DNA of 64,000 nt from a virus. Below the pieces are notes generated by a model. That model saw only the letters and a list, made by a program, of their open reading frames with translations, did no database searches and was not told the DNA's origin. Made by a program: the position numbers and the translations under genes. This document shows, piece by piece, positions 41,691-49,720 of the stretch (position 1 is the stretch's first letter; each line of letters starts with the position of its first letter). Where the stretch lies: the IMG/VR virus record IMGVR_UViG_3300029217_000180, one strand, 5' to 3'.

Positions 41691-41763
41691 GCCCGGATAG
41701 CTCAACTGGTAGAGCACTTGACTTGTAATCAAGAGGTTGTGGGTTCGACTCCCATTCTTGGCT
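41691..41763 (+). tRNA. tRNA-Thr (anticodon TGT)
   Basis: D-arm GCTCAACTGGTAGAGC, anticodon arm CTTGA-CTTGTAA-TCAAG, T-arm GTGGG-TTCGACT-CCCAT; one acceptor mismatch. Confidence 0.65.
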
Positions 41764-41837
41764 CTTACCTCTCGATAGAGGGTAATGGTTCCTCCATGAT
41801 AATATAGGGGCATGGGCGGCGATGAACCGCCCAGTAA

Positions 41838-41921
41838 TGTGCGGTGGTGCAGCATGGTAGCACGTCTGTCTGATACGCAGGAGATCATAGGTTCAAATCC
41901 TATTCGCACAACTATTTAATT
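41838..41921 (+). tRNA. tRNA-Ile (anticodon GAT)
   Basis: acceptor TGTGCGG/TCGCACA, D-arm GTGC-AGCATGGTA-GCAC, loop CTGATAC, T-arm ATAGG-TTCAAAT-CCTAT. Confidence 0.7.
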
Positions 41922-44438: not shown

Positions 44439-44624
44439 ATGGCAACAGCAAGCAAAAAGACGGCAGCAGGCAAGAAGAAAATGGACGATAAGAAGAAAGT
44501 AGCAGCTTCCAAAAAGGAGACTGCGAAGAAATCTTCTGATAAGAAAGCGGCAGCTAAGAAGTCCACTGCAAAGAAAACTGCCACCAAGAAAACTACTGCC
44601 AAAAAGGCAGCAAAGAAAAACTAA
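44439..44624 (+). CDS. lysine/alanine-rich basic small protein (histone-H1-like)
   Basis: 61 aa, ~45% Lys, AKK repeats; AGGAGGTAGAGCC RBS. Confidence 0.45.
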   Translation: MATASKKTAAGKKKMDDKKKVAASKKETAKKSSDKKAAAKKSTAKKTATKKTTAKKAAKKN

Positions 44625-45524: not shown

Positions 45525-46517
45525 ATGGCACAGGGCACAGCAACATCATTCGCTGTTCCTAATTTTAGCGGAATGTTATTCGCTAAAGGGCAGCAGGCAA
45601 CACCGTTCTCTACTATGATTGGCGCAAGACCTCTTGTAACCAATCATGTAGAGTTTACTTGCGGTCAGGAGTACAACACAGAAACAGGCGAACAGCCTAA
45701 GATTTCTGAGACAGCATCCCTTACCGCTCCACAGCCGGAAATCGTAACCAGAAGTCAGCTTACCAATGTAACTCAGATCTTCCAGAAGTCCGTAGCGATT
45801 TCTTATGGAAAGCAGAGCAACATGGGTACACTGCAGGGCATCAACGTAGCCGGTCAGCAGGCAAATCCTATGGATGAACTTGCGTTCCAGGTATCTCGTA
45901 GAATGGCGAAGATCGCACAGGATATTGAGTACACTTTCATCAACGGTAAGTATGCGAAAGCTACTACTGATGCAGAGGCAAACCAGACCAGAGGACTTCT
46001 GACTGCGATTACAACCAACATACTCGATCTTGCAAAGAAACCTCTTACCTACTGGCTTGTAGCAGAGGGATTAAAGTCCATTCACGATCAGGGTGCAAAG
46101 ACAGACAATATCGTTCTCGGTGTAGATGCAACCACTATGTTGCAGCTCAACCTTGACGCTCAGCAGAACAACCTGACTATCGTTCCTCTCGGAAGAGAAG
46201 TAAACGGTATCAAGTTACAGACCGTAGTGACCCCTCTTGGAGAGGTAGCAGTCGCATTGTTCGATACCATGCCTGCCGGTACTGCCGTTCTGTTTGATCC
46301 GTCCATCATGGCCCCTGTTCATCAGATGGTTCCTGGTAAGGGTAATTTCTTCTTAGAGCAGCTTGCAAAGACAGGTGCAGGAGAAACTTATCAGATCTTC
46401 GGTCAGATCGGTCTGGATCACGGTCCTGAGTGGATGAGTGCGAAGTTTACTAATATTTCCACAGATCTTCCTAGCAAGATCACGGCAAGCGGTACAACGG
46501 GTACAGCGGGGGAATAA
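45525..46517 (+). CDS. major capsid protein (HK97 fold)
   Basis: 330 aa following scaffold, AAGGAGG RBS, typical MCP composition. Confidence 0.85.
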   Translation: MAQGTATSFAVPNFSGMLFAKGQQATPFSTMIGARPLVTNHVEFTCGQEYNTETGEQPKISETASLTAPQPEIVTRSQLTNVTQIFQKSVAISYGKQSNMGTLQGINVAGQQANPMDELAFQVSRRMAKIAQDIEYTFINGKYAKATTDAEANQTRGLLTAITTNILDLAKKPLTYWLVAEGLKSIHDQGAKTDNIVLGVDATTMLQLNLDAQQNNLTIVPLGREVNGIKLQTVVTPLGEVAVALFDTMPAGTAVLFDPSIMAPVHQMVPGKGNFFLEQLAKTGAGETYQIFGQIGLDHGPEWMSAKFTNISTDLPSKITASGTTGTAGE

Positions 46518-46758
46518 CAGGTCATACCCTTAACGGTAGTTCCGAGGTAGTTGATTCTTCTGAATCCACATCAACGGATGCGGATTCAGAAGAGACGGCT
46601 ACTGACAAGAAGTACACAGAGGAAGAACTTAACGCTCTGACAGTAGCACAGATTAAGGCTATCGCAGCGGAACGTGGGTATGACATGAAAGAAACCGTAA
46701 AAGCAAAGCTGATCGCAGAGTTTTTAACTCAGCAAGGGTAAGAAAGTGAGGACGGATT
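46509..46758 (+). other. -1-frame extension of MCP (81 codons, no start codon) reachable by -1 slip on GGGGG 46508-46512
   Basis: frame -1 relative to MCP open from inside MCP to TAA 46756-58; encodes ..EEELNALTVAQIKAIAAERGYDM.. HeH/Rho-N-like motif. Confidence 0.45.
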
Positions 46759-47124
46759 ATGGACGCTAAATTGTTGAAAGTCATTTTAGATGATGAAACT
46801 CTCACTGACGAACAGATTGCCGTCCTCCTTGTGAAAGCTCAGAAACAGGCTGCAAATCAACACTTTTGGGCGGATGATGATATTCCGACAGAGGCAGAGT
46901 TGGAGAGATTTTATAACCGGTATGAGTTTGAAATCTATGATTTGGCGAAAGCCATAAACTCTGATGATGCGAGGGGCGGACTTGTATCTCACACAGAGCT
47001 TGGAGTTACCCGGAACTGGGGACAGACAGGTAAGAAAGATATTGAGTTGGCCTTGGCAAAGATTCCACCCAAAACCTATGTAGGTCTGTTAAGGAGGGAT
47101 GGCAATGCCGAAGCTGAGACTTAA
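46759..47124 (+). CDS. head-tail connector/adaptor protein
   Basis: 121 aa directly after capsid gene. Confidence 0.5.
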   Translation: MDAKLLKVILDDETLTDEQIAVLLVKAQKQAANQHFWADDDIPTEAELERFYNRYEFEIYDLAKAINSDDARGGLVSHTELGVTRNWGQTGKKDIELALAKIPPKTYVGLLRRDGNAEAET

Positions 47125-48983: not shown

Positions 48984-49337
48984 ATGATTTTACAGACGGC
49001 GAATGGACCCAAGGAAATTAAAGTAGCAGAACTTGATTTTACAAACATTATGTGTGATCTGGAAGATCACGATGTAGATGTCATGGGACTTCTGGATGAT
49101 GATACCAGAGAGAACATGAAGATTTTTAAGACAATCAGAGCAATCATCGCGGTATTGACCGGTACAAAGGATCTTACTACAGCCGGGAAGATTTTAAGCG
49201 AACATCTCAAATATGGCGGATCTATGGATGAAGTCATGGGGGCGTTTACGGAGGTAATGAAAACCGCGGGTTTTGGCGAGGAAGCCGAGGAAACTCCGAA
49301 GAACAGCGGAAAGAAAACCAAGGCGGCAACAGAGTAG
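48984..49337 (+). CDS. tail assembly chaperone
   Basis: 117 aa acidic protein immediately before TMP with overlapping -1 frame ORF. Confidence 0.55.
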   Translation: MILQTANGPKEIKVAELDFTNIMCDLEDHDVDVMGLLDDDTRENMKIFKTIRAIIAVLTGTKDLTTAGKILSEHLKYGGSMDEVMGAFTEVMKTAGFGEEAEETPKNSGKKTKAATE

Positions 49338-49720
49338 AGGAAATAGATCTCAGCAAATACAAATCGTTTACTGAGATTATCAATAAAGTTTGGCTTCCAA
49401 ACGCTCTTCTCTATGGGGTTTCCTATGATACTTTCTGGAAACTGAACCCTAAAAAATTAGAACCATTCCAAAAGAAGAGAGAGATGGAGGCAAAAGAGCA
49501 GGCTACGGCAATAGATACATTGGCGTGGTCCGTTGGTTCGTATGTCGTAGATGCCATGGCGATATTCCTTGACAAAAATTCTCCGGCATACCCAAGCCAA
49601 CCGAGAAGCATGAACAGCACAGAGAGCGCACCGCCGGGAGCAAAAATGACGGATGCAGACAGATTCGCTGCCTTTGCCGCAGAACATAATAAGCGATTGA
49701 GACAGCGAAGAGAAAAGTAG
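49238..49720 (+). other. -1-frame extension of tail chaperone (gpGT-like fusion) reachable at GGGGG 49238-49242
   Basis: frame -1 open from 49232 through 49720, no RBS/start of its own until late; canonical position for tail-chaperone frameshift. Confidence 0.45.

Follow-up and report, generated by a model that had tools for sequence, protein, structure and literature searches.

A probable -1 ribosomal frameshift adding a helix-extended-helix domain to phage major capsid proteins, in a cassette found on unrelated capsid genes

Introduction

Does the major capsid protein (MCP) of a phage end where the stop codon of its gene says that it ends? The question is raised by a 64,000-nucleotide stretch of viral DNA (IMG/VR virus record IMGVR_UViG_3300029217_000180; the window, hereafter, is this whole stretch), whose MCP gene terminates with ACA GCG GGG GAA TAA and is overlapped at its 3' end by an open -1 frame. 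An earlier note on this DNA had proposed that ribosomes slip into the -1 frame on the G run and thereby add a C-terminal domain to the MCP. As a kind, the frameshift-extended MCP is already known, and long MCP forms made in this way are established in phages T7 and T3, in Lactobacillus phage A2 and in the Listeria phages A118, A500 and PSA (PMC5009743). Here we describe how the window's junction compares with those of its relatives, which points to a programmed -1 frameshift whose slip signal and domain appear to travel together, given that they follow four unrelated MCP families (SU10_MCP, Phage_cap_E, Phage_capsid and phrog_544).

The -1 frame at the end of the capsid gene

The gene upstream of the putative slip site can be identified as that of the MCP from profile matches and structure prediction: its product matches Pfam SU10_MCP (E 4.8e-51) and PHROG 1328 'major head protein', and the predicted model of a homologue that carries the extension in frame (P0004) resembles the capsids of Pa223 and SU10 (E 1e-14 to 1e-12). 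On its 5' side lie an SPP1-type portal gene, a MuF-like gene and a scaffold-like gene, and on its 3' side tail genes. The features of the junction are collected in Table 1.

Table 1. Features of the capsid gene junction in the window, and other capsid genes that carry the same cassette
Feature	Position or locus	Strand	Basis
MCP gene, 330 amino acids, 35.3 kDa, HK97 fold, 0-frame product	45525..46517	+	Pfam SU10_MCP, PHROG 1328
Open stretch in the -1 frame, 88 sense codons plus TAA 46739-41	46475..46741	+	Sequence
Slippery heptamer G_GGG_GAA in MCP phase (Gly329 GGG 46509-11, Glu330 GAA 46512-14)	46508..46514	+	Sequence, conservation, documented -1 motif
0-frame stop TAA abutting the heptamer	46515..46517	+	Sequence; TAA or TAG in every frameshift lineage
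Conserved 10-mer GGTCATACCC (consensus RGNYATASCY), two bases past the stop; -1 frame reads G-[H/Y]-[T/S]-L	46520..46529	+	Alignment A6
Linker, 33 amino acids, Ser/Thr/Asp/Glu-rich, isoelectric point (pI) 4.1, predicted disordered	46514..46612	+	AlphaFold, composition
RNA hairpin, about 25 bp, in the linker coding region, starting 31 nt past the heptamer	46546..46603	+	Folding versus shuffles
Helix-extended-helix module (YTEEELNALTVAQIKAIAAERGYDMKETVKAKLIAEFLTQQG), about 42 amino acids, Rho_N/SAP-like	46613..46738	+	AlphaFold, Pfam in relatives, PDB profile matches
Phage_cap_E / phrog_29 gene with cassette	L180 and at least 18 other junction variants		
phrog_544 major head gene with cassette, two subtypes	L184, L293		
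Phage_capsid (HK97 gp5-like, PF05065) gene with cassette	L286, L291, L296		
Partial gene, family not assigned, with cassette	L284		

The open stretch is preceded in its own frame by a TAG (46472-74), and its last sense base is 46738. The earlier note had counted 81 open codons reaching to 46758; the frame is indeed open, but it closes before that point, 46758 being merely the last base before the ATG (46759) of the next gene, and reading after a slip would run from 46511 or 46514 to 46738, i.e., over 75-76 codons. Under either model of the slip considered below, the transframe product would comprise 405 amino acids and 43.2-43.3 kDa, versus 35.3 kDa for the MCP alone. The further claim that the extension has no start of its own was borne out. 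No ribosome-binding site (RBS) precedes the -1 open reading frame (ORF) in the window sequence, its sole ATG, GTG or TTG is an ATG at 46685-87 that lies within the folded module, 18 codons before the stop, and in 11 of 12 diverged lineages the stretch from the upstream stop to the folded module has no such codon.

A homology search with the hypothetical 405-residue fusion as query matched many MCP homologues of 312-330 residues, as well as proteins of 376-398 residues that span the whole query, in which the alignment shows the module joined in frame to the MCP. At the DNA level, clean in-frame fusions of MCP and module that have no G run were found in P0004, P0008, P0020 and L087. We drew on viral and genome collections for 160 loci that surround MCP homologues, and located the MCP and the module separately in each. 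Wherever the module directly overlaps the end of the MCP gene, it does so in the -1 frame, from 100% MCP identity down to 60%, and in some 90 distinct junction sequences an in-phase heptamer runs straight into a stop codon and the module lies in -1. The junction NNG GGG GAA TAR is kept, and the sequence just upstream of it is unrelated between lineages. The 0-frame stop alternates between TAA and TAG among the frameshift lineages and is never lost, even at the cost of a residue change in the -1 frame (T to A). A prophage in a cultured isolate, Diplocloster hominis CSJ-3 (L086, NZ_JAWDIY010000002.1 at about 138-146 kb, 97% MCP identity), has the -1 junction with G5. Relatives in which the -1 frame is closed were named by the earlier note as what would speak against its proposal; in the relatives that we checked, the frame is open down to 60% MCP identity and in three other MCP families.

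A protein search with the extension alone returned nine short matches, and gene callers almost never call it. In the GenBank phage collection, we found neither a close annotated relative of the window phage nor an annotated slippage. Because the module has in-frame homologues, because the -1 junction recurs in about 90 forms and because GGGGGAA is scarce in the 64-kb window (2 found versus 8.3 expected), the -1 extension is, on this comparison, more than a product of chance.

Selection on the extension was assessed over the 41-codon module core. Relative to the window copy, the ratio of nonsynonymous to synonymous substitution rates (dN/dS) in the -1 frame was 0.06-0.33, and the pooled ratio of nonsynonymous to synonymous polymorphism (pN/pS) was 0.39 in the -1 frame, versus 1.00 and 2.23 in the two remaining registers. 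Purifying selection is, by these ratios, confined to the -1 frame, and the ORF is therefore maintained as a protein.

Not all lineages use the same heptamer. Alternative slippery sites, each abutted by a stop, are G_GGG_GGA_TAA (L047), G_GGA_AAC_TGA (L043 and L044) and G_GGG_TAA (L114). In L043 (3246-3446) and L044, the junction reads CTG GGA AAC TGA, versus TTG GGG AAC CTG in the in-frame fusion P0020 (L166:2930-3010 is also concerned), and a one-base length difference creates the canonical G_GGA_AAC with its stop and puts the module in -1; the site may be one that evolved independently.

The proposed slip site and mechanism

The earlier note placed the slip at GCG-GGG-GAA, with tRNA-Gly re-pairing on the G run, and the heptamer found there, G_GGG_GAA in MCP phase, agrees with a documented -1 motif. 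GGGGGAA is the single 'five-two' -1 motif, occurring in about 1000 curated SEA-PHAGES actinophage frameshifts in tail assembly chaperone genes, as described in the PRFect paper, which has tRNA-Glu re-pair from GAA to GGA via G:U (PMC10885494).

We propose that the majority of ribosomes end at TAA 46515-17 and release the 330-residue, 35-kDa capsid subunit, and that a minority slip back by one base on 46508-14. In a tandem slip, tRNA-Gly would re-pair from GGG to GGG and tRNA-Glu from GAA to GGA, with a central G:U; alternatively, only the tRNA-Gly in the P site would slip. The stop codon adjoining the heptamer probably prolongs the pause. Slipped ribosomes would read on to 46738 and produce a 405-residue, 43-kDa protein made of the MCP, an acidic disordered linker of about 33 residues and a 42-residue helix-extended-helix (HeH) domain. 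The predicted junction peptide is GTAGEITGHTLNGSSE (...TAGE-ITGHTL...) for the tandem slip and ...GTAGGITGHTL... for a slip in the P site or during transcription, and a sequence of the GGCGGCGAG type is a synonymous mutant of the slip site. The short and long forms would co-assemble, leaving tethered domains in substoichiometric number at the MCP C-termini, probably facing the outside of the capsid. The appended domain would thus be an accessory, surface-displayed decoration, because close relatives have no module, fuse it constitutively or encode it separately.

Several points weigh against this proposal. The support for the frameshift is wholly comparative, and the heptamer is non-canonical at its A-site codon, where the shift from GAA to GGA requires a central G:U pair. 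No stimulatory structure stands at the classical spacing of 5-9 nt: the proximal hairpin has no covariation beyond that of shuffles, and the strong hairpins are 18-75 nt away. The module is acidic (pI 4.8), which casts doubt on the binding of nucleic acids that its relatives in fold would suggest, and rare G6 variants indicate that the length of the homopolymer does vary in the data. Even so, given the anatomy of the junction, its conservation and the selection on its -1 frame, we regard a genuine programmed -1 ribosomal frameshift at G_GGG_GAA as quite probable.

The window holds other elements that bear on recoding. Its tail assembly chaperone pair (48984-49720) consists of a 117-amino-acid ORF (48984-49337) and a -1 frame that is open at 49232-49720, with G_GGT_TTT in phase at 49268-74. 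This is the usual -1 arrangement, and translation in the phage's host can therefore be expected to support -1 recoding. The window also encodes an array of 13 tRNA genes (31127-35124 and 41691-41912), which includes tRNA-Glu(UUC) (33096-33169), the A-site tRNA of the proposed slip, and no tRNA-Gly. Inside the array, ARAGORN called a tRNA with a four-base anticodon, ACCA, in an eight-nucleotide anticodon loop (33373-33446); its RNAfold structure is cloverleaf-like, with a z-score of only -1.6. The call may be false, or the tRNA may read quadruplet codons or act like a frameshift suppressor.

Alternative explanations of the junction

Of the rival explanations, the one that survives best is that the -1 ORF is translated alone, by non-canonical initiation or by termination and reinitiation after the MCP stop, giving a free HeH protein of about 8 kDa. 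Relatives do encode standalone small proteins with the same C-terminal module just 3' of their MCP genes, each with its own ATG and RBS (L035 and L088-L092), the solved proteins YqbF and FluMu gp35 have a similar C-terminal motif, and the G run is itself Shine-Dalgarno-like. However, the standalone versions possess an extra N-terminal domain that the window's ORF has not, nearly all lineages offer no start codon ahead of the module, and in-frame MCP fusions exist. Moreover, a constant -1 phase, a slippery heptamer and an abutting stop are not needed for reinitiation, and we consider independent translation unlikely.

Unlikely too, and ranked below it, is transcriptional slippage, in which RNA polymerase would sometimes add a G within the G5 run, such that some mRNAs encode the fusion in frame. 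The site is a homopolymer whose length varies among assemblies (G5 here, G7-G8 in some relatives), and a P-site slip would give the same predicted ...GGI... product. In bacteria, transcriptional slippage is known typically from runs of about nine A or T, next to which G5 is short. In addition, the sites of L043 and L044 (GGGAAAC) and L114 (G4) are not long homopolymers, and the run always takes the form X_XXY_YYZ in MCP phase beside a stop, an arrangement relevant to ribosomes and not to the polymerase.

As for the variation in run length, the G7 and G8 runs (L005 and L285) keep the -1 phase, the G8 variant adding exactly one Gly codon. A G6 run results in an in-frame fusion in L223, L083 and L297-299, and in L003 (the L003/L176 entry) a G6 derived from G7 places the module in +1. 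Such variants may be rare natural changes of the homopolymer or assembly errors.

The extension might also be a decaying remnant, i.e., an ancestral in-frame MCP-HeH fusion broken by a one-nucleotide deletion and no longer expressed. The in-frame fusions of relatives and the one-base change in junction length that separates L043 and L044 from the P0020 type are what such a history would leave behind. Yet low dN/dS values of the module are confined to the -1 frame, some 90 distinct junctions from four MCP families keep the ORF intact behind the same heptamer and stop, and the RNA holds excess structure compared with synonymous recodings (see below), all of which make decay very improbable.

Least probable of all is a sequencing or assembly error that hides a true G6 run and a constitutive fusion, the missed G that the earlier note had offered as its alternative: the exact 405-residue G6 fusion does occur in three contigs from three samples, with G6 present in their DNA, and L223 and L083 are G6 fusions in other lineages, but the exact 330-residue window MCP (NCBI DAW86424.1), with G5, is found on at least 1000 contigs and G5 also in the isolate genome, and thus a missed G does not explain the window, the more so as the diverged lineages are all in -1 phase and a conserved 0-frame stop after the run would be purposeless with G6.

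The same cassette on unrelated capsid genes

We searched viral contigs for the DNA pattern of the junction. The pattern delineates a cassette comprising the heptamer, the stop, the conserved 10-mer RGNYATASCY two bases on, a variable linker and the module, and this cassette was also found 3' of capsid genes without detectable sequence similarity to the window MCP (Table 1). In all of those capsid families, the heptamer is in phase and the MCP ends in ...GE followed by the stop. At the protein level, similarity between cassettes on different MCP genes starts at the G run and stops at the stop codon of the module. It is on these protein-level results that the boundaries of the cassette rest; its nucleotide identity between MCP families, 66-75% versus a flank background of 55-65% under the same scoring, is too noisy to date transfers.

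Under the frameshift proposal, slip site, stop, 3' motif, structured RNA, linker and domain would act as one portable cassette on several unrelated MCP genes. We extend this to a broader proposal, for and against which we would give even odds: these six parts form a single horizontally exchangeable recoding cassette that can be grafted onto any HK97-fold capsid gene for a set, substoichiometric display, its signal inherited with the domain and not locally evolved, and its distal RNA structure, lacking where the module is fused in frame or stands alone, a non-classical component of the signal.

Other domains appear to occupy the same place. According to precomputed Pfam assignments, the SU10_MCP homologues P0070, P0083, P0086, P0089, P0095, P0104, P0107 and P0112 carry Big_2 (PF02368) or PF18316 domains, and their lengths and coverage suggest that these are C-terminal and in frame. 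Judged from such architectures, accessory domains in general seem to dock at the MCP C-terminus.

The linker and the helical module

An AlphaFold prediction, made with the extension aligned with its homologues, separates the extension into two parts. Residues 1-30 have a predicted local distance difference test score (pLDDT) of about 50, and the corresponding linker varies widely in length and sequence among relatives. The module is predicted with a pLDDT of about 90 and has a short N-terminal helix (extension residues 38-42) and two helices (46-56 and 65-76) that are joined by an extended connector, in keeping with an HeH fold.

The label HeH/Rho-N-like, given to the end of the extension by the earlier note, is a reasonable one. 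Among 12 diverse module copies scanned with Pfam, Rho_N was matched by 7 (best E 5.4e-7), SAP by 5 and DUF7440 by 8; the window's own copy is marginal, with SAP at E 0.14 and DUF7440 at E 0.029, both under the cut-off. A module profile compared with the PDB matched the N-terminus of Rho (3l0o) and FluMu gp35 (2out) at E 0.005, and also YqbF. The best Foldseek neighbours were the C-terminus of T4 endonuclease VII, B. subtilis YqbF and eukaryotic SAP domains, with root-mean-square deviations of 1.4-2.5 Å and E-values that are non-significant for so small a domain. DNA binding was considered as the function of the module and not adopted, because both linker and module are acidic (pI 4.1 and 4.8).

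The extension is all-helical, and Pfam and AlphaFold gave no immunoglobulin (Ig)-type match (Big_2, I-set or FN3). As modelled, it would act like the addition of an Ig-like domain by frameshift, yet it lies outside that class.

RNA features downstream of the proposed slip site

Two kinds of RNA feature follow the heptamer. The first is the conserved 10-mer. In alignment A6 its invariant columns are G14, A17, T18, A19 and C21, with the AUA invariant across cassette lineages and MCP families. It could exert a 3' context effect through its primary sequence, or it could reflect the conserved G-[HY]-[ST]-L peptide. A proximal hairpin around YAUA was tried as a classical stimulator and rejected: in 19 diverse cassettes, a five-pair model had 66% of its cells paired versus 68% in shuffles.

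The second is a strong distal hairpin, which is present in every frameshift lineage at a lineage-specific position, starting 18-75 nt past the heptamer. In the window, a 121-nt fold containing it has -43.5 kcal/mol (z-score -5.5 versus dinucleotide shuffles; none of 200 shuffles was as stable). When the 129 nt after the slip site were compared with synonymous recodings, the z-scores ranged from about -0.4 to -6.3, below -2 in most lineages. In cassettes with short linkers, the hairpin is formed by the 'EDLN' and 'IK/RSLA' codons of the module, and the mean z-score of this region was -2.24 in frameshift cassettes (n=41), versus +0.41 in in-frame fusions (n=4) and -0.20 in standalone genes (n=3). 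The window's lineage has a z-score near 0 over the same region, its excess structure residing in the linker hairpin instead.

The distance of the distal hairpins from the slip site is too large, and varies too much, to be that of a classical stimulator. One possibility is that they exert a long-range effect, by analogy with T7 gene 10 and some insertion sequence (IS) elements, for which long-range 3' effects on recoding have been reported (PMC5009743). Alternatively, they may stabilise the 3' end of a mostly untranslated region after the MCP stop. A kissing interaction or pseudoknot between the proximal motif and the loop of the distal hairpin was also rejected as a candidate; inspection by eye showed complementarity in L042, L045 and L076, but the window's lineage lacks it. 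The hairpin has no Rfam family and only sub-threshold miRNA-like matches there, and neither an intrinsic terminator on the + strand nor a terminator T-run at the hairpin was found.

Comparison with known systems

A close precedent is gene 10 of T7 and T3 (10A/10B), in which, as proposed here, a -1 slip at a G-initial heptamer near the stop makes one MCP gene yield a major short and a minor extended form; in T7, long-range 3' sequence also contributes (PMC5009743). The T7 heptamer is G_GUU_UUC, as opposed to G_GGG_GAA in the window, the T3 extension is Ig-like and the T7 extension neither Ig-like nor HeH, unlike the HeH-like extension of the window. The two systems further differ in MCP family, in host (Lachnospiraceae here) and in the occurrence of the present cassette on several MCP families.

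A2 (-1), A118 and A500 (-1) and PSA (+1) are, like the window phage, siphophages of Firmicutes, and their frameshift lies at the 3' end of the capsid gene, as is proposed here. Their C-terminal extensions have been found in virions, their slip sites differ from that of the window and the A2 extension is described as Ig-like (PMC5009743). The long form is essential in A2, whereas here close relatives have no module or a constitutive one, and an accessory role is therefore suggested, unlike in A2.

Fraser et al., as summarised in PMC5009743, describe how phage structural proteins acquire Ig-like domains, either in frame or through a +1 or -1 frameshift. The Ig-like additions resemble the present case in placing an accessory domain at MCP C-termini, with in-frame fusion, frameshift and separate genes used interchangeably among relatives, and in some homologues of the window MCP (P0083, P0086 and P0095), Big_2 appears to take the corresponding place in frame. 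They differ in that the window's domain is all-helical and HeH/Rho_N-like, and in that its recoding signal is conserved and appears to move with the domain, as opposed to arising ad hoc after an out-of-frame insertion.

The heptamer itself is shared with actinophage tail chaperone genes (G/GT-type), which have the identical GGGGGAA and the same proposed re-pairing (PMC10885494); here, it lies in a capsid gene, in phages of another host phylum, and is abutted by the stop. The module, in turn, has counterparts in YqbF of the B. subtilis skin/PBSX-like prophage (PDB 2hjq) and in FluMu gp35 (PDB 2out), small phage proteins whose C-terminal HeH motif matches it in profile and fold, and the standalone homologues found here (L035 and L088-92) adjoin MCP genes. 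YqbF and FluMu gp35 are, however, encoded separately and each has its own N-terminal domain; they involve neither an MCP extension nor recoding.

In the literature, we found nothing specific on this cassette, on HeH domains on capsids or on frameshifting in DUF5309/SU10_MCP genes. What is new here is the HeH/Rho_N-like payload on an acidic tether, the use of GGGGGAA right against the stop codon of Lachnospiraceae phage capsid genes, the repeated appearance of a single cassette in at least four MCP families in gut phages, and the excess RNA structure that accompanies it. This phage is very common, many of the public contigs with the identical MCP coming from human-gut collections, and its gene is annotated as 'major capsid protein' only, with the extension uncalled; if the cassette were recognised, annotations of many gut phages would be corrected. 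The cassette would also extend the Ig-type 'promiscuous' decoration of capsids to a second, helical class of domain, and would offer a compact natural case, useful for studying the spread of frameshift sites, of a recoding signal and its payload moving jointly between unrelated capsid genes. It may be usable as it stands for display at low copy number on the capsids of Firmicute phages, and a cultured lysogen is at hand for testing what the tethered domain binds.

Neighbouring genes

Directly 3' of the extension lies a gene for a 121-amino-acid protein (46759-47124) without a Pfam or PHROG match, which, from its position, is probably a head-tail connector or head-completion protein. Between the MuF-like and scaffold-like genes, an ORF of 61 amino acids (44439-44624) encodes an extremely Lys/Ala-rich product (MATASKKTAAGKKKMDDKKKVAASKK...) and has a called counterpart of the same length in two relatives, L297 and L298. 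The product may be a basic head protein, either internal or DNA-condensing.

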